From an uncultured Candidatus Saccharimonas sp. (GTDB taxonomy: Bacteria > Patescibacteriota > Saccharimonadia > Saccharimonadales > OMJO01): a stretch of DNA of 64,000 nt. Below are positions 16,467 through 30,910 of this stretch, piece after piece. The DNA is taken from contig CALRAM010000001.1 in assembly GCA_943353165.1 (NCBI GenBank), forward strand, positions 45,483 to 109,482, written 5' to 3'. The position numbers and the translations under genes are program-made. Every line of letters begins with the position of its first letter. The first letter of the stretch is position 1. A model generated the notes under the pieces. It was given only the letters and a program-made list of their open reading frames with translations, had not been told where the DNA came from and made no database searches.

Positions 16467-17435
16467 ATGTACACCTATAAAAGAAAGCTAAGTTTTGGGT
16501 TAGCTATGACATTTGTAGCGGTGCTCCCGCTCTTGTTGCTTGTAAAAAAACAGCAAATTATTGACTGGACTCAACTAAGGAATTATAAACCTGATTCAAT
16601 AATCTCTAAGCTAGCAGTAGATACTACTATGAGTAACCTTGGAAGACATTTGTTTTATGTAAATCATCCTACACTTCATGAAAAATCAACATTTGCTGGA
16701 CATTGCAAAATTAGTGAGCTAACAAACATTTTGGGATGTTACGTAAGTGGAGACGGTATCTACCTTTACGATGTCAAGGATCCTCGTTTGTCTGGCATAA
16801 AAGAAGCCACTTCAGCTCACGAAATGTTGCACGTAGCATACGAAAGATTAAGTGCTACAGAAAAAGTTAAAGTCAACAAAATGTTACTAGACGTTTATTC
16901 TAAAGTTACAGATACACGCATAAAAAATACTATTGCAAGCTACAAAAAAGCAGGTGCAGATACTACAAATGAACTGCATTCTATTTTAGGTACTGAAATA
17001 TTGGCTTTGACTCCTGACCTAGAGAACTATTACAAGAAATATTTTACAAATCGCACAGCAGTAGTCAAATATTTTAATCAGTATCAAAATGCCTTTGAAG
17101 AAAGAAAAAACAAAGTCGAGCAATATGATATTTCTCTTGCCAGCATAAAATCCAGAATAGAAAATCTAGAATATGACCTTAAAAATGAAGCTTCTAGCCT
17201 AGAAAACGAACGTTCCAGGATGAATAATTTGATAGCGAACAATCAAGTTTCGGAGTACAACCAAGCAGTACCCATATTTAATCGTAGAATAGAAGCCTAT
17301 AATAATAAAACCAAAGTCGTAAAACAACTAGTAGATGACTATAACGGTATAGTTATTGAACGCAACAACATTGCGACAGAAGAAAATGAACTTATCAAAG
17401 CCATAGATAGCAGTCCTGTAAATATTAAAGTTTAG
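16467..17435 (+). CDS. hypothetical membrane-anchored protein with HExxH motif and C-terminal coiled coil
   Basis: 322 aa with an N-terminal TM helix, AHEMLH (HExxH), a later NELHS motif, and a heptad-like Asn/Glu/Lys-rich C-terminal third. Confidence 0.6.
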   Translation: MYTYKRKLSFGLAMTFVAVLPLLLLVKKQQIIDWTQLRNYKPDSIISKLAVDTTMSNLGRHLFYVNHPTLHEKSTFAGHCKISELTNILGCYVSGDGIYLYDVKDPRLSGIKEATSAHEMLHVAYERLSATEKVKVNKMLLDVYSKVTDTRIKNTIASYKKAGADTTNELHSILGTEILALTPDLENYYKKYFTNRTAVVKYFNQYQNAFEERKNKVEQYDISLASIKSRIENLEYDLKNEASSLENERSRMNNLIANNQVSEYNQAVPIFNRRIEAYNNKTKVVKQLVDDYNGIVIERNNIATEENELIKAIDSSPVNIKV

Positions 17436-26363: not shown

Positions 26364-27182
26364 ATGTATAGCGGTACAACATTAAATAAAACATCTGGTC
26401 GTATTCTAGGTACACACCAAAAAATAGACAGAGTAGCTCGAAAGCATTTGTCTGTTATTTTAGAAGATAACAACGTTTTTCCTAAAGCAAACGCCATACT
26501 GCATTTTGAAGGCAAAAATGGCCCCGATGGCATCAAACGCAAGAGTCCCGCAAAGGACGAGCTGTGGCACTATTATAGTCCTTTTGACGACGATGATTCG
26601 GCCTTGCTAGATCTGATAAGAAACCATTACGACAAATTAGTCACAGAACTGCGTGCAAATAACGTTGAGCGAGTAGCATTCGAAGCTGCCTGGCTGTCCC
26701 ACGCTTTGGTTGACGGCCTAACGCCTGCGCATCATTACCCATATGAAGAAAAACTTTCCGAACTAAGGGGAGGCGAAGGTATGGAAAGCCGTGATTCTGT
26801 AAAAGATAAACTAATAATGCCAGGCAATACGCGTAGACAAAAGGTCAAAAACAATTGGAAAATGTGGGGACCAAAAGGATTGTTTACTACTCATGGTTTA
26901 TTCGAGATGGGTGTGGCCACAATTATGGCACCACTGGCCATGAAGGATGCAATGCCAACCGAATCTGATATAAATGAGCTTCTAGATATAGGCCTGTTAG
27001 AACGTTTTAAGAGAACAGCCAGAGAAATCGCAGTTTTAGATATGTACCATAATTATTATAAAAAAGGTTGGACACCCAAGTTTGCACACCAGGTTCGTCA
27101 TCAACTGGGCCCTGTAATAGTTAAAACAGTAACATTAGCATGGTATAGCGCCTTGATTGACGCCGGCAAAGTTAACAAATGA
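26364..27182 (+). CDS. hypothetical protein, possibly zinc-dependent phospholipase C / P1-nuclease-like fold
   Basis: 272 aa with no signal peptide. GTHQKIDRVARKHL and SHALVDGLTPAHH (H-x3-D-x5-H) resemble the metal-ligand spacing of the PLC/P1 superfamily. This assignment is from memory of motifs only. Confidence 0.45.
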   Translation: MYSGTTLNKTSGRILGTHQKIDRVARKHLSVILEDNNVFPKANAILHFEGKNGPDGIKRKSPAKDELWHYYSPFDDDDSALLDLIRNHYDKLVTELRANNVERVAFEAAWLSHALVDGLTPAHHYPYEEKLSELRGGEGMESRDSVKDKLIMPGNTRRQKVKNNWKMWGPKGLFTTHGLFEMGVATIMAPLAMKDAMPTESDINELLDIGLLERFKRTAREIAVLDMYHNYYKKGWTPKFAHQVRHQLGPVIVKTVTLAWYSALIDAGKVNK

Positions 27183-27709
27183 GAGTAATTTCAGGATCTT
27201 TGGGTGGCCAAAATTTTGAATCTCCTCATGGCCATAGAACTCATCCCATGAGCGACAAAATACGCGGTGCCATTTTTGGTGTATTAGGAGATATTAGCGG
27301 CTGTAGCGTGTTGGACGCTTTTTCTGGTAGCGGAGCTTTAGCCATAGAAGCCATCAGTAGAGGATCGTCTAGCGCTGTAGCCGTAGAAGTTGATGCTGGC
27401 GCACACGCTATAATAGTCAAAAACATCCAAAAGCTTGGAATAGAAAAAAAAGTTAAAGTTGTTCGGGCATTTGTAAATGCCTGGTCCACTAGGCATCAGG
27501 ACCAGTTATTTGACATTATCTTTGCAGATCCACCATACGACAATATCCCATATCGCGATCTTAAATTTTTAGCCAGACACCTAAAGCCAACCGGCACACT
27601 GGTATTGTCTTGGCCTGGCAAAGCAGATGTATACTATATTCCCGAACTAATTGAAGTTCAGATCAAAAAATACGGCGATGCCCAGCTAATATTTTATAAA
27701 TATGCATAA
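27179..27709 (+). CDS. rsmD: 16S rRNA (guanine966-N2)-methyltransferase RsmD
   Basis: MRVISGSLGGQNFESP.., LDAFSGSGALAIEAISRG and a DPPY motif. The start overlaps the upstream stop (ATGA). Confidence 0.85.
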   Translation: MRVISGSLGGQNFESPHGHRTHPMSDKIRGAIFGVLGDISGCSVLDAFSGSGALAIEAISRGSSSAVAVEVDAGAHAIIVKNIQKLGIEKKVKVVRAFVNAWSTRHQDQLFDIIFADPPYDNIPYRDLKFLARHLKPTGTLVLSWPGKADVYYIPELIEVQIKKYGDAQLIFYKYA

Positions 27710-27790
27710 TCATATTTTACTAATTACGCAAAATTTAGTACAATAACAGAGTGGTATAAGGAAAAAACATATGGATCTGTCGTATGTTAT

Positions 27791-27818
27791 GCGGACGACC
27801 GTGGCTGAAGGTTCATCC
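27791..27818 (+). repeat. tRNA-Leu-derived mini-fragment (5' acceptor/D start fused to a T-arm-like segment)
   Basis: GCGGACGACCGTGG matches the 5' end of the interrupted tRNA at 27851. The following CTGAAGGTTCATCC resembles CGTGAAGGTTCAAGTCC of the intact tRNA. Confidence 0.4.
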
Positions 27819-27890
27819 TATACGCCAAGTACGATACAATTTATAATTACGCGGACGATCGTGGAATTGGTAGACACGCTAGCCTTAGGA

Positions 27891-27998
27891 GTGAAACCCG
27901 CCTGTGGCGGGTTGCAAGGTCGGAAGCCTGGATTGCGCAAGCAACCAAGCTGAGACGGGGTCGCAACCGATTGGACTATGTCCAATAGGATTGTGACA
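27891..27998 (+). repeat. structured element copy A (variant): HP1 CCCGCC-TGT-GGCGGG, HP2 capped by GCAA, HP3 with extra nested hairpin
   Basis: GTGAAA-CCCGCCTGTGGCGGGTTGCAAGG-[AGCCTGGATTGC-GCAA-GCAACCAAGCT]-CGGGGTCGCAA..TTGGACTATGTCCAA..ATTGTGAC. It replaces the 3' anticodon-stem strand of the tRNA-like gene. Confidence 0.6.
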
Positions 27999-28017
27999 GT
28001 GCCGCAAGGCGTGAAGG

Positions 28018-28104
28018 AGAGACCCGCCTGTGGCGGGTCGCAAGGTAGACAACTCTTGCGAACTGGTTTGCAAAGATGTTGCTACGGGGTCGCTGAAAGT
28101 GACC
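28018..28104 (+). repeat. structured element copy B, inserted in place of TTC of the T-loop
   Basis: AGAGA-CCCGCCTGTGGCGGG-TCGCAAGG-[TAGACAACTCTTGCGAACTGGTTTGCAAAGATGTTGCTA]-CGGGGTCGCTGAAAGTGACC, flanked by GAAGG on the 5' side and AAGTCCTTT on the 3' side. Confidence 0.65.
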
Positions 28105-28151
28105 AAGTCCTTTTCAAAAGCCTCTTGAACCTTCATAATATTATACAGTGC

Positions 28152-28236
28152 GCGGATGTGGTGGAATTGGTAGACACGCTAGCCTTAGGAGCTAGTGCCG
28201 CAAGGCGTGAAGGTTCAAGTCCTTTCATCCGCACCA
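28152..28236 (+). tRNA. tRNA-Leu, anticodon TAG (UAG), class II long variable arm, CCA encoded
   Basis: Manual fold. Acceptor GCGGATG/CATCCGC. D stem GTG/CAC with GAATTGGTAGA loop. Anticodon stem CTAGC/GCTAG with loop CTTAGGA. Variable arm TGCCGCAAGGCGT. T arm GAAGG-TTCAAGT-CCTTT. Discriminator A followed by CCA. Confidence 0.9.
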
Positions 28237-28239
28237 ATC

Positions 28240-28270
28240 AAAAAATGCTCTCTTTTGAGAGCTTTTTTTG
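28240..28270 (+). terminator. intrinsic terminator after tRNA-Leu
   Basis: GCTCTC-TTTT-GAGAGC followed by a T run and preceded by an A run. Confidence 0.7.
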
Positions 28271-28297
28271 ATTTGTTCTGGAAGGTCTTGAACCAAA

Positions 28298-28422
28298 CCC
28301 TAAGGCGTGAAGGCGAGAGCCGCCTGTGGCGGGTTGCAGGGAAACCTTTCAGATTATCTACTTGTTGATAGTATGAAAGTTTTGGGGTCGCGGAACGTGA
28401 CCAAGTCCTTTCATCCGCACCA
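28298..28422 (+). repeat. tRNA-Leu 3'-portion-like unit carrying structured element copy C; ends in an exact copy of the tRNA 3' end (AAGTCCTTTCATCCGCACCA)
   Basis: CCCTAAGGCGTGAAGG-CGAGA-GCCGCCTGTGGCGGG-TTGCAGGG-[~42-nt hairpin]-GGGGTCGCGGAACGTGACC-AAGTCCTTTCATCCGCACCA. The element core spans 28314-28402. Confidence 0.65.
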
Positions 28423-28455
28423 AAACAAGTGACCCCGAAAGGGGTCTTTTGTTTT
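28423..28455 (+). terminator. intrinsic terminator after unit C
   Basis: GACCCC-GAAA-GGGGTC followed by TTTTGTTTT. The sequence is unrelated to the terminator at 28240. Confidence 0.7.
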
Positions 28456-28490
28456 GGTGGTCGAAATGCCCAGAACCTTCACCCTAAAAA

Positions 28491-28648
28491 GGCGTGAAGG
28501 GGAGAGCCGCCTGTGGCGGGTTGCAAGGCAACTTTACAGATTTCAAACTTGTTTGAAGTATGTAAATTGAGGGGTCGTGGAACGTGACCGAGCCCCCTGT
28601 CTTTCTGACAAGAAGGCCAGGCAGGACGGACAGGTTTCATTCACACCA
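28491..28648 (+). repeat. tRNA-Leu 3'-portion-like unit carrying structured element copy D plus a further ~45-nt hairpin insertion; degenerate 3' end TTTCATTCACACCA
   Basis: GGCGTGAAGG-GGAGA-GCCGCCTGTGGCGGG-TTGCAAGG-[hairpin]-GGGGTCGTGGAACGTGACC (core 28501-28589), then GAG-CCCCCTGTC..GGACAGG-TTTCATTCACACCA. Confidence 0.6.
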
Positions 28649-28686
28649 ACCATATATTGTATGAACTGACACAAAATAACACCTAT

Positions 28687-28712
28687 AGAGGAACGTCCTC
28701 TTTCTCTTGTTT
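28687..28712 (+). terminator. weak intrinsic-terminator-like hairpin downstream of unit D
   Basis: AGAGGA-ACG-TCCTCT followed by the T-rich tract TTCTCTTGTTT. The T tract follows the stem only on the + strand, so it is not the terminator of the LOG gene on the - strand. Confidence 0.4.
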
Positions 28713-28750
28713 CTGTTCTACACCCAATAGACTTGTAATTGATTTTTTAC

Positions 28751-29329
28751 TCATACAAATTTGTCCGCTAGTTCTTTTGTCTGATAATTCTTAAAATAAT
28801 TTAAGATATCATTCAAATCACTGCCAATAAACACAAAATCACTAAAAGGCACTTTTGAGAAATCTTTCTGTTGCATTTCATCTAGGAATTTTATGAGCGT
28901 ATCGTAAAAACCATCATAGTTAAAAATAGCAATCGGTTTGTCGTATAGTTTATTTACTTTACCACCAACAATTTCTCCAATTTCTTCAAATGTTCCGTAG
29001 CCGCCGGGCAAAATAATAAATGCGTCTGATTCAAAAACTATACGATGTTTGCGGTCGTCCATAGTTTCTTCTAAGTATGTTTTATCAAGTCCATCAAATG
29101 CTACATAGCCTTTGGTAACTGCCATCAAATCTTTTGCCATCACGCCAGTCAAATCATTGCCGCCAGCGTCTTTATAGGCTTTAGCAAGTTCAGACATCAT
29201 CCCATAGTCTGTTCCACCATAAACAATACCCATTTTTTCATTAGCAAGTCGTTCGGCAACTTCTATAGTCAAATCAATATATTCCTGCCCAACTGACAAA
29301 GAAGATGTAAGAGTTATACCCACTTTCAT
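28751..29329 (-). CDS. LOG-family protein (TIGR00730-type Rossmann-fold nucleotide-binding / phosphoribohydrolase)
   Basis: GIVYGGTDYGMM and the PGGYGTFEE motif (LOG family PGGxGTxxE). I chose the ATG at 29329 (MKVGITL..) inside tracked ORF 28751-29356. Confidence 0.85.
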   Translation of the reverse strand: MKVGITLTSSLSVGQEYIDLTIEVAERLANEKMGIVYGGTDYGMMSELAKAYKDAGGNDLTGVMAKDLMAVTKGYVAFDGLDKTYLEETMDDRKHRIVFESDAFIILPGGYGTFEEIGEIVGGKVNKLYDKPIAIFNYDGFYDTLIKFLDEMQQKDFSKVPFSDFVFIGSDLNDILNYFKNYQTKELADKFV

Positions 29330-29421
29330 AAATCTAATTATACAACAATTACCCAAAAATCTTTTCAGCCAAAAACTAAAAACCCTACAGAGCAGTTCAG
29401 CGAGTCGCCCAGAACCCTAAG

Positions 29422-29520
29422 GCGTGAAGGGGGGACCCGCCTGTGGCGGGCCGGACGTAAACAAACTCTTGAAAACTGGTTTTCAAAGATGTTTTTCTGG
29501 GTGAGATGAGAAGGGGGCTC
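29422..29520 (+). repeat. structured element copy E (5' part and HP2 conserved, linker and HP3 degenerate)
   Basis: GGCGTGAAGG-GGGGA-CCCGCCTGTGGCGGG-CCGGACG-[AAACAAACTCTTGAAAACTGGTTTTCAAAGATGTTTTT]-CTGGGTGAG.. HP2 is homologous to that of copy B. The 3' end coordinate is approximate. Confidence 0.5.
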
Positions 29521-29602
29521 ATTGTATAGGGACACAGACAAGATTATTCTACATCATCGATTACTAAAACCTATTTATGATGTATTATAAATAGGAATAA
29601 CT

Positions 29603-30910
29603 ATGGCACTATCTACACAACCATACAAAGGATCTAGGGATTTTTACCCAGAAGACAAGCGTCTCCAAAAACATATATTTGGAGTCATGCGTTCTATCTC
29701 TGAAAAATACGGCTACCAGGAATATGATTCGCCTATTTTAGAACCTACAGAAATATATTCAAACAAAACAAACGAAGAGATTGTAAACGAACAAACATAC
29801 ACATTCGAGGATCGGGGTAATAGAAAAGTTACTATTCGCCCAGAAATGACTCCATCAGTCAGTCGAATGGTTGCAGCCAAAAGGCAAGAGCTTCCATATC
29901 CGTTGCGTTGGTACTCGTTGCCCGTCAACTGGCGATATGAACGCCCTCAACGTGGCAGACTACGTGAATTTTGGCAACTAAACGTTGATTTGTTTGGTAT
30001 CGCAGGCTTAGAGGCAGAAGCAGAAGTCATCCAAGTCGCAGACGATATCATGAAGGCTTTTGGCGCTAAACCAAACATGTACAAAATAAAGATTAACAGC
30101 CGCAATTTGATGGATTACTTTATCAGCGATAGTTTGGGCATGGATAGCGTACAGTCGTCTGTACTAGTTCCGTTAATTGACCGGATGCATAAAATGGATT
30201 TTGCAGAATTTTCTGGGCAAGTAGAAGCGATATTTACACCTTCACAACGCGAAAATTCCGGACCTGATCAGTTATTTGAATTTTTAAAGATAACTAGTAT
30301 CGACGACCTACCCATTTCAATAAAAAACCATCCCTCTGTGATTACGCTAGTCAATTTGATAAAAAGGCTGACAAACGCGGGAATTACAAATGCTGTGTTC
30401 GAACCAACACTAATGCGAGGTTTTAACTACTACACAGATGTAGTATTCGAGGTTTTTGATACCCATCCAGACAATAATCGTTCTATGTTTGGTGGAGGGC
30501 GCTACGATGGCTTGGTAGGCGCCTACGGAGTAGAATCAGTCCCGACAGTCGGATTTGGCATGGGAGATGTGACAATATACAATTTTTTGGAATCACACGG
30601 CCTTACACCAACAGTCAAAACAGAAACGGATGTATGCGCGATTATTATAGGCGATACGCTAGAGCCCGCCCTAAAAATTATTTCTGAGCTAAGAGAAATG
30701 GGACTAAATGTTGCAGTGGCCAGTACCGAACAAAAGATAGACAAACAGATCAAAATAGCTGTCAAAAACGGCATAAAATTTGCAGTATTTTTAGGAGAAA
30801 AAGAGATAAAAAATCAACAAGTACTACTCAAAAATTTAGAAAATAGTACAGAAGAAATCGTCAGTTCACAGAGAGCAGTCAGCATCATCAAAGACTTTCG
30901 TATAAAATGA
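29603..30910 (+). CDS. hisS: histidine--tRNA ligase
   Basis: 435 aa with class II motifs (KGSRDFYPED, WRYERPQRGRLREFWQ, GGGRYDGL) and an anticodon-binding C-terminal domain. Confidence 0.9.
   Translation: MALSTQPYKGSRDFYPEDKRLQKHIFGVMRSISEKYGYQEYDSPILEPTEIYSNKTNEEIVNEQTYTFEDRGNRKVTIRPEMTPSVSRMVAAKRQELPYPLRWYSLPVNWRYERPQRGRLREFWQLNVDLFGIAGLEAEAEVIQVADDIMKAFGAKPNMYKIKINSRNLMDYFISDSLGMDSVQSSVLVPLIDRMHKMDFAEFSGQVEAIFTPSQRENSGPDQLFEFLKITSIDDLPISIKNHPSVITLVNLIKRLTNAGITNAVFEPTLMRGFNYYTDVVFEVFDTHPDNNRSMFGGGRYDGLVGAYGVESVPTVGFGMGDVTIYNFLESHGLTPTVKTETDVCAIIIGDTLEPALKIISELREMGLNVAVASTEQKIDKQIKIAVKNGIKFAVFLGEKEIKNQQVLLKNLENSTEEIVSSQRAVSIIKDFRIK

Follow-up and report, generated by a model that had tools for sequence, protein, structure and literature searches.

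A putative two-nucleotide-replacing mobile element with three hairpins at tRNA genes and tRNA fragments of Saccharibacteria

A 64,000-nucleotide stretch of an uncultured Candidatus Saccharimonas sp. genome (assembly GCA_943353165.1, contig CALRAM010000001.1, positions 45,483 to 109,482; hereafter, the window) contains five copies, designated A to E, of an approximately 87-nt element with three hairpins that we name X. X is structure-defined, sense-strand-specific, orientation-locked and non-coding, and it replaces two nucleotides at its site. We consider it probable (roughly 0.6) that X is a non-autonomous mobile element that enters tRNA-like stem-loops and bounds swappable gene cassettes. Comparison of related sequences points to an element that is active and has moved recently.

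Structure and conservation of X

In the window, the 14-mer CCGCCTGTGGCGGG has five matches, all on the + strand (27898, 28024, 28320, 28507 and 29437), compared with 0.08 expected from shuffles, and the motif GGGGTCGYKGAAMGTGACC of the third hairpin (HP3, preceded by HP1 and HP2) is found at 28086, 28384 and 28571 with none expected. A covariation model built from relatives gives the same copies A to E and no others in the 64 kb, and repeat finding recovers them as well. The five-copy family that a first-pass annotation had proposed from the letters alone is therefore real.

X contains no open reading frame (ORF). It consists, in order, of one base (usually T), HP1, AAGG, a long variable HP2, GGG and HP3. 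HP1 (GARA-S-CCGCC-NGT-GGCGG-G-TYGC) forms a 10-bp helix with an invariant A·G, and a G-C/A-U/G-U switch connects GARA and TYGC. The innermost pair of HP3 (GGTCGCN-RRA-N'GTGAC) shows all four Watson-Crick combinations; a G·U is conserved in 39 of 40 sequences, and the closing pair is formed with the first base of the target. HP1 had been described as invariant, which holds within the window; elsewhere it covaries (AATGCC/GGCATT, TGAGCC/GGCTCA, CAATTC/GAATTG, ACTGCC/GGCAGT). Copy A had been said to lack the 5' GGNGAGA motif, whereas it does have the GARA motif (TGAAA). The reported HP2 differences between copies are indeed pairing-preserving, and structure-keeping substitutions are upheld on 42 sequences. 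In one distal X (L021 3635-3795), belonging to a SMODS/SLATT cassette, the HP1 3' strand is swapped for a 60-nt GC-rich hairpin (TGCATGCCACCACGCGATGCC..GGCACTTCTC).

RNAalifold predicts three hairpins with compensatory changes in 24 of 29 pairs. Across the 42 model-aligned sequences, 26 of 30 pairs carry compensatory changes, 94.4% of cells are paired versus 71.3% in shuffles, and cells changed on both sides number 264 versus 74; none of 500 shuffles matches the observed values, and pairing falls to 31-49% in slid-partner controls. This larger alignment thus shows strong compensatory change, arguing against mere scars. The folding strand of X, as RNA or single-stranded DNA, is the tRNA-sense strand, because G·U outnumbers A·C (G·T/T·G versus A·C/C·A, 74 to 10); the + strand fold beats the - strand by 6.5 kcal/mol for copy B and 9.5 kcal/mol for copy C. 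RNAfold gives three hairpins for copies A, B and C (z = -5.4, -4.8 and -2.7) and a less clean fold for copy D; copy E (z 0.08) has a degenerate 3' part, as the first-pass annotation had noted.

Distribution of X and association with tRNA genes

A genome scan with GRRASCCGCCTGTGGCGGGYYGSA returned 14 loci: 12 titled Saccharibacteria or Saccharimonadales metagenome-assembled genomes (MAGs), one Patescibacteria MAG, and one labelled Doudnabacteria, yet identical to a Saccharibacteria contig. A metagenome scan yielded 35 further loci, and no longer X with an ORF inside HP2 was present among the 49 pattern-scan loci. The covariation model (A1, R1), built from 31 distinct simple copies, detected 69 good matches in 49 Saccharibacteria/Patescibacteria sources, and the copies come from independent assemblies in ENA, NCBI and JGI. 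Many matches lie at contig ends, as expected because the repeat breaks assemblies.

Within 400 nt of an intact tRNA gene lie 54 of the matches, 53 of them in the orientation of the tRNA: 23 upstream (17-209 nt) and 30 downstream (typically 62-83 nt, or further in arrays). The single exception sits inside a minus-strand tRNA-Ser gene and is co-oriented with that gene. At L041 and L035, oppositely oriented copies lie 0.4-1.2 kb apart, each following its own tRNA; replication-strand bias is excluded as the cause of the orientation because X tracks each tRNA despite such opposed neighbours. The adjoining tRNAs represent about 16 isoacceptors, including Leu (3 anticodons), Pro (2), Lys (2), Arg (2), Val (2), Ser, Gln, Ala and His.

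No Rfam family matched X, as its claimed novelty required: only tRNA passed the gathering threshold in the window, positions 27600-29700 searched at E<=10 gave only chance-level matches below 24 bits, and related X loci returned only tRNA. Two viral-contig scans produced chance GC-rich matches only, or a match failing the X model, and BLAST of the unit that holds copy C (unit 3, below) against phage and plasmid records found no match. The literature searched held no description of X; a paper on tRNA group I introns of Patescibacteria concerns anticodon-loop group I introns, not X.

Evidence of mobility

Over 1.8 kb, loci L035 and L059 share 98.8% identity. L059 has an intact tRNA-Ser(CGA) gene, whereas in L035 an 88-nt X stands in place of the T-loop TT between the same flanks, and the site is otherwise unchanged, with neither a repeat nor an antisense piece; X alone is therefore a mobile unit. 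ARAGORN found no second tRNA-Ser on the contig with the interrupted gene, and tRNA-Ser(UGA) is present in L059. Since tRNA-Ser(UGA) can read UCG, tRNA-Ser(CGA) is probably dispensable. A second indel between the two loci, 105 extra bp in L059 (1756-1860) comprising a terminator and more, lies past the X unit downstream of tRNA-Arg(GCG).

Closely similar copies are also found at unrelated tRNAs: X at Arg(CCT) and His (97% identical), at Lys(TTT) and Arg(GCG) (95%), in the T-loop unit upstream of a Leu gene and downstream of an Arg gene (93%), and copy B of the window and an X in a tRNA-Ser context of another genome (90%). The suggestion of a small non-autonomous mobile element targeting tRNA-Leu is thus borne out as regards mobility by the filled and empty sites, and the restriction to Leu falls with the range of isoacceptors. 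A linked recombinase was sought by Pfam in 150 neighbouring ORFs and the scanned window ORFs, and none recurred; integrase, transposase and reverse transcriptase (RT) families are absent from the 25 most frequently hit Pfam families of the 150 ORFs, in which the only RT-named match is RVT_3 (2/150).

Insertion rule and target sites

The flanks of each X were aligned to the adjacent intact tRNA, which gave 21 alignable junctions. X replaces exactly 2 nt in all 21, namely TT, GT, AT, AG or CG. In 20 junctions 3 nt appear to be missing, the last base of the X match being the third, and the remaining one (L024) fits once re-anchored. As the apparent third missing base always equals the last model-match base, that base is target-derived; it pairs with the first G of HP3. 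Copies B and C had earlier been placed exactly where the TTC of the T-loop should be. The site is right (GAAGG-X-CAAGTCCTTT versus GAAGG-TT-CAAGTCCTTT), with the correction that TT is replaced and the C is target-derived.

The insertion motif is RGG/NN/Y, with the replaced bases between the slashes: G occupies -1 in 42/42 and -2 in 39/42, a purine stands at -3 in 42/42, and X is followed by a pyrimidine (+1) in 39/41. The first X base is T in 32, G in 5, C in 4 and A in 1 of 42 sequences. Within tRNAs, X is found in the T-loop (54-55), in the anticodon arm (38-39), at 26-27 and in the variable loop before the T stem (L005). Five nested insertions fall at GGG/GT/CGC in the HP3 5' strand of another X (L025, L034, L038, L039 and L058), with no duplication of the host X. 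The loop of a terminator-like hairpin serves as a further target (AGAGGG/GG/TGGGCAC; L048, L049 and L061). X has no terminal inverted repeats and produces no target duplication. Antisense T-arm copies never carry X, though they offer perfect targets on the other strand.

The copies in the terminator-like loop (L048 650-1150, -; L061 1600-2150, -; and L049) represent an X subfamily with a differing 3' part. The 17-nt loop of that hairpin, AGAGGGGGTGGGCACCG, is kept between contigs, an intact hairpin lies about 20-90 nt downstream, and the hairpin has no Rfam match.

Units, arrays and cargo cassettes

Beside live genes, X is embedded in units of partial tRNA sequence. In the window, units 3 and 4 downstream of the tRNA are each built, in order, from an antisense T-arm piece, a short loop, the T-stem 5' strand in sense, X, what remains of the T-loop, the T-stem 3' strand, the acceptor 3' strand with CCA, and a terminator. 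Only T-loop units have the antisense T-arm piece, which lies at -31 to -39 or +88 to +103 from X. This piece complements the target as it reads uninterrupted, so that a folded single strand leaves X bulged out opposite AA. The direct repeats of upstream units begin at tRNA position +1, those of downstream units stop at CCA and sometimes run through the terminator, and repeats closer to the live gene are less diverged. Direct tRNA repeats also flank units elsewhere (59 bp in L026, 21 bp in L030 and 64 bp in L042).

Units and their cargo vary between relatives. The 186-bp unit 3 (copy C), bounded in the window by a 22-bp repeat at 28216/28402, is absent from L005, and the approximately 303-bp unit with copies A and B is absent from L057, where the position of unit 3 is occupied by an X of another subfamily. 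Between the same flanks, the window carries a LOG/SLOG gene and L005 an unrelated small gene (PF26604 CBU_0592). In L005, a DUF2268 gene is also found on the opposite side of the array, where it separates the methyltransferase gene from the upstream unit. Cargo between X copies elsewhere consists of RelB/YafQ in L030 and of SMODS and AGS_C with SLATT_4 in L021.

Several further features of the units were observed. The CCA end of the tRNA contributes to the stem of a symmetric A-tract/T-tract terminator (28233-28276 and 28418-28459; also L026, L030 and L040), and each downstream unit carries a different such terminator. A (C)GTAC motif lies 15-30 nt upstream of a -10-like box in type I spacers (window 27820-27835, L018, L028, L031, L050 and L063); it could belong to the unit or be a host promoter element. 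Behind tRNA-Asp and tRNA-Pro (L053 1150-1300 and L040 1640-1840), units carry unrelated inserts of roughly 70-76 nt in the place of X.

Three interpretations of the units were rejected. The antisense pieces do not serve as -35 boxes, as their spacing to the -10 box is 11-14 nt; a retroviral-type primer-binding site fails because the terminator stem accounts for the TGG and the local tRNA is mismatched to the acceptor part; and simple tandem tRNA duplication disagrees with two promoter spacers that are unrelated in sequence (L050 and the window).

Organization of the window locus

The array is flanked by an RsmD-like methyltransferase gene (27179-27709) and hisS (29603-30910), whose protein cluster is named Candidatus Saccharibacteria. 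The ten window ORFs scanned by Pfam (1-19 kb and 26364-27182) are housekeeping or unassigned, and two conserved ORFs of 272 and 322 aa (26364-27182 and 16467-17435) have no Pfam match. At the center of the array lies an intact tRNA-Leu(TAG) gene (28152-28236, +; ARAGORN; Rfam tRNA, 60.5 bits), the only tRNA gene of the window and the sole source of a Rfam match passing gathering there. All five copies sit in dead tRNA-Leu fragments around this live gene, A and B upstream and C, D and E downstream; features of the array are on the + strand unless stated otherwise.

Upstream, unit 0 (27789-27848) is the remnant of an older upstream unit after deletion and comprises the 14 nt of the tRNA-Leu 5' end, a T-arm remnant and a TATAAT spacer. 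Its undeleted counterpart, with an A-type X ahead of the T stem, is L005 4148-4358, and L057 shares the remnant; unit 0, like copy E, is visibly decaying. The 5' part of a decayed tRNA-Leu(TAG) copy follows (27849-27891), beginning with the acceptor 5' strand and reaching the first base on the 3' side of the anticodon stem. It repeats 28152-28192 in direct orientation (31-nt exact repeat D6), and the decayed copy has no acceptor 3' strand downstream. Copy A (27892-27997; model score 44 bits) interrupts the anticodon stem after CCTTAGGAG, with CT replaced, and belongs to a subfamily, also represented by L005 4203-4299, L055 and L039, whose HP2 contains CCGGAAGC..CTGAG and whose HP3 is extended. 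Next, AGTGCCGCAAGGCGTGAAGG (27998-28017) supplies the decayed copy with its variable arm and the 5' strand of its T stem; it is identical at 20/20 positions to live-gene 28194-28213 and leads into copy B (28018-28103; 114.5 bits), located in the T-loop with TT (54-55) replaced. Positions 28104-28151 contain the T-loop rest and T-stem 3' strand, an antisense T-arm and an AT-rich spacer before the live gene. Within them, 28124-28135 is an antisense copy of the uninterrupted T-arm (CTTGAACCTTCA; inverted repeat I9, 12/12), and this layout of antisense T-arm and spacer upstream of a live tRNA recurs in L042, L019, L018, L029 and L050.

Downstream, the bidirectional terminator hairpin of the live tRNA (28233-28276; inverted repeat I1) opens unit 3. 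The left part of unit 3 (28279-28313; inverted repeat I7) contains the antisense T-arm TGGAAGGTCTTGAACC, a loop and the sense variable-arm/T-stem 5' strand CTAAGGCGTGAAGG, and it pairs with 28402-28413 as an outer closing helix in the fold of 28279-28413. Copy C (28314-28401; 92 bits) lies in the T-loop with TT replaced and is followed by the 22-bp direct repeat of the tRNA 3' end (CAAGTCCTTTCATCCGCACCAA, equal to 28216-28237; D7) and its own terminator hairpin (I2), together 28402-28459. Unit 4 begins with the antisense T-arm GAAATGCCCAGAACCTTCAC, a loop and the sense strand GGCGTGAAGG (28463-28500; inverted repeat I3), continues with copy D (28501-28588; 88.6 bits) and ends in a diverged tRNA-Leu 3' end (GAGCC..TTTCATTCACACCA, 28589-28650) that is split by an extra hairpin, CCCTGTC..GACAGG. 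This GC-rich hairpin (CCCTGTC..GGCCAGGCAGGAC..GACAGG) sits between the T-loop remnant and TTTCATTCACACCA; L057 has the same hairpin insert at about 1560-1650, with a tail ending in undiverged CATCCGCACCA. It may represent a second small insert family.

The cargo between copies D and E is the LOG/SLOG-family gene (Lysine_decarbox, LDcluster4; 28751-29356, -), whose protein gave no match in an exact-sequence look-up. The left part of the distal unit (29408-29430; repeats D3 and D4) combines an antisense-piece remnant, CCCAGAACC, with sense CTAAGGCGTGAAGG. Copy E (approximately 29431-29507; 50 bits) has intact HP1 and HP2 and a degenerate HP3 and tRNA 3' end; complete X copies with its HP2 class are found at L005 4522-4608 and L057 585-671. 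ORFs of 83 and 97 aa cross X copies and tRNA (27885-28136, -, and 27978-28271, +), and some public assemblies call genes over X (L002 and L009; 60, 97 and 53 aa). ORFs of this kind are almost certainly spurious products of GC-rich repeats.

Proposed mechanism and alternative explanations

We hypothesize that an enzyme encoded elsewhere recognizes X in its folded, single-stranded form. The DNA strand targeted would probably be the sense (non-template) one of strongly transcribed tRNA loci, the transcript itself being a less probable target; DNA is preferred because nested and bare insertions resemble simple DNA events and most copies lie behind terminators. Insertion would kill the tRNA, so that X would persist only where the gene is dispensable or where a live gene stands next to the partial copy. 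Whole units come and go as blocks flanked by direct tRNA repeats, each fragment unit bringing a promoter-like spacer or a terminator and T-loop units adding an antisense T-arm. X copies and the tRNA together bound small cassettes of accessory and defence genes, and conserved tRNA and X sequences probably act as recombination anchors for cassette exchange in these naturally competent bacteria. More tentatively, X could exemplify a new kind of mobile system, in which a small folded nucleic acid is put into exposed loops of tRNAs or tRNA genes by a host or unlinked enzyme that excises exactly 2 nt, with the antisense T-arm as a splint or guide across the insertion site, and seeds integron-like arrays of accessory and defence cassettes at tRNA genes of ultra-small, naturally competent bacteria. 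To a categorically new insertion mechanism we give a considerable, though minority, probability.

Several observations weigh against X as a simple mobile element of this kind. The motif RGG/NN/Y is too short to account for tRNA specificity, and a further determinant is needed; the variable first X base fits untemplated addition, as in insertion based on reverse transcription; and no enzyme was found, nor was an excised form or transcript of X seen. Simple transposition does not explain the antisense T-arm of T-loop units, and unrelated inserts occupy the same T-loop position within the same unit layout (L053 and L040), which is therefore independent of X. In addition, an uninterrupted extra sense T-arm copy is absent near all 52 tRNA genes examined. 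This lack of insert-free partial copies suggests that unit formation and insert presence are linked, and it weakens the idea that X merely colonized pre-existing fragments.

Among the alternatives, the one that survives best is an RNA route, which retains a minor share of the probability: X RNA, plentiful in tRNA leader transcripts, would enter single-stranded parts of tRNA transcripts, or target-primed reverse transcription would copy it at a nick in a tRNA gene, and the cDNA would end up in the genome. It would account for X always standing in tRNA sense regardless of neighbouring tRNAs, for tRNA sites that are cloverleaf loops or hinges (54-55, 38-39, 26-27 and the variable loop), for the conserved G·U and sense-strand-specific fold, and for antisense T-arm copies never being targeted. 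A precise 3' junction with a variable first base and direct repeats that end at mature tRNA ends fit as well, and the fixed 2-nt deletion recalls R2, a site-specific retrotransposon with a fixed small target deletion. However, no linked reverse transcriptase is present (RVT_3 only, 2/150 ORFs), most copies (type II units) lie behind strong terminators without a promoter, and the nested target is within a stem; neither a 5'-truncated X series nor an A-rich tail was seen.

The architecture of the units invites another explanation, which we regard as improbable: X as the immobile core of a folded single-stranded attachment (att) site, comparable to integron attC or the attP hairpin of CTX phage, by which a tyrosine recombinase acting in trans integrates cassettes at tRNA genes. 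The bare X in tRNA-Ser(CGA), with no cassette, repeat or antisense piece, stands against it, as do the five copies nested in another X and the insertions into the anticodon arm and D-arm, all likewise bare. A T-loop unit does fold into a duplex of the target with X bulged out opposite AA, and its order mirrors the R''-L''-loop-L'-R' of attC (PMC5027507); however, RYYYAAC/GTTRRRY boxes were not seen on reading the copies, with no pattern search run, and no integron-type integrase is evident among frequent Pfam families. Tandem arrays, tRNA-end repeats, per-unit terminators, accessory cargo, the lack of a cis integrase and structure conserved beyond sequence all speak for such a site. By analogy, an attC- or CTX-like folded site offers the best comparison for the units, yet it cannot explain the bare X.

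A functional cis-acting RNA (intron, self-cleaving ribozyme or regulatory leader) kept by selection at tRNA loci is very unlikely. Strong covariation and invariant junction nucleotides would suit it, and upstream copies would be co-transcribed with the tRNA; however, downstream copies lie between terminators, X is present or absent between strains without other change, and near-identical copies occur at unrelated genes. All interrupted tRNAs but one lack the acceptor strand, incomplete copies adjoin an intact gene wherever the contig extends, and no Rfam match appears even at E<=10. The first-pass proposal of an intervening sequence, ribozyme or tRNA-like module is thus unsupported as regards a functional intron, the two replaced bases being unrestorable. 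Decaying recombination scars or chance GC-rich repeats can be dismissed, even with copy E and unit 0 clearly in decay, in view of five matches versus 0.08 expected and 69 structure-conserving copies in independent assemblies.

Implications

Saccharibacteria and other members of the candidate phyla radiation (CPR) have tiny genomes in which tRNA genes are usually single-copy. An active element aimed at tRNA loops is unexpected in such genomes and must shape which tRNAs have decoy fragments. Its insertion signature, a 2-nt replacement with the next base of the target completing a hairpin, matched no transposon, intron or att-site class compared. X and tRNA pieces bound variable cassettes (toxin-antitoxin, CBASS-like SMODS/SLATT and SLOG) that differ between near-identical strains, and X may therefore explain defence-gene exchange without linked integrases. 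X breaks assemblies at tRNA loci and gives rise to spurious ORF predictions; CPR annotation would benefit from a model of X, and the enzyme that moves it, when identified, could serve as a compact tool for site-specific insertion.

Comparison with known systems

Integron attC sites and clusters of attC sites lacking integron-integrases (CALIN) resemble X in several respects (PMC5027507). They are non-coding sites of 60-140 nt set by the fold of one strand and orientation-specific, they end each promoterless cassette in tandem arrays with the recombinase outside the cassette, and T-loop units are attC-like in their inverted-box order. In contrast, X consists of three separate hairpins, not one imperfect palindrome, its arrays start at tRNA genes and not at attI beside intI, and X inserts alone, and into itself, with loss of two target bases; attC boxes were not seen by reading, with no pattern search. 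Neither the 25 most frequent Pfam families (150 ORFs) nor the 10 scanned window ORFs include an IntI or other integrase beside the arrays.

IS200/IS605-derived elements and repetitive extragenic palindromic (REP) sequences with their bacterial interspersed mosaic elements (BIME) are mobilized by HUH Y1 transposases. Like X, they are small non-autonomous hairpins acting in single-stranded DNA, strand-specific, without target duplication or terminal inverted repeats, and able to nest. They insert genome-wide 3' of a fixed tetra- or pentanucleotide, carry guides about 20 nt inside their ends and delete nothing, whereas the hairpins of X directly adjoin its junctions and X replaces 2 nt of tRNA-like targets. 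Guides would have no room in X, since a single nucleotide separates HP1 from the 5' junction and the closing pair of HP3 involves the first base of the target. A REP-type GTAG motif was not noticed in X, and no Y1 HUH family is among the 25 most frequently hit families of the 150 neighbouring ORFs, which come from contig fragments only.

The non-canonical tRNA introns of Thermoproteales are likewise short, similar inserts at the D-arm, anticodon, variable region and T-arm of many tRNAs, sometimes several per gene (PMC4090602, PMC4033280). There, splicing at a bulge-helix-bulge restores the tRNA, whereas X has no such motif, removes two bases and resides in a bacterial host; even the complete interrupted tRNA-Ser(CGA) of L035 would still miss T54-U55 after removal of X. 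Tycheposons share accessory and defence islands at tRNA genes, partial tRNA repeats and tandem stacking with the newer units next to the gene (10.1101/2020.12.28.424599). They carry their own tyrosine recombinase and contiguous att repeats; X units have no linked integrase, can be shorter than 200 bp, and every partial T-arm copy here is split by a structured insert. With respect to tRNA islands in general, flanking direct tRNA repeats are present, and the cargo genes named above, where there are any, include no tyrosine or serine recombinase.

Rickettsia palindromic elements and the Correia elements of Neisseria are structured selfish repeats of about 100-150 nt in small genomes and can sit in genes. 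They differ from X in having no tRNA specificity and no 2-nt rule, and Correia elements have inverted ends and a TA duplication. X is not a miniature inverted-repeat element of a DDE transposon, since its ends, TGARA.. and ..GTGAC, are not inverted repeats and the filled/empty pair shows a 2-nt loss. Target-primed reverse transcription would fit the 2-nt loss and the variable first base, and no RT was found nearby in the contig fragments. Hammerhead (CUGANGA), group II (5' GUGYG/3' AY, domain V) and group I (omega-G) features were rejected by eye. By analogy, X appears to work most like a structure-recognized, strand-specific non-autonomous element, and its units like integron cassettes or tRNA-anchored islands. 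We thus place X among the small non-autonomous structured mobile repeats, as a family previously undescribed in the literature searched.

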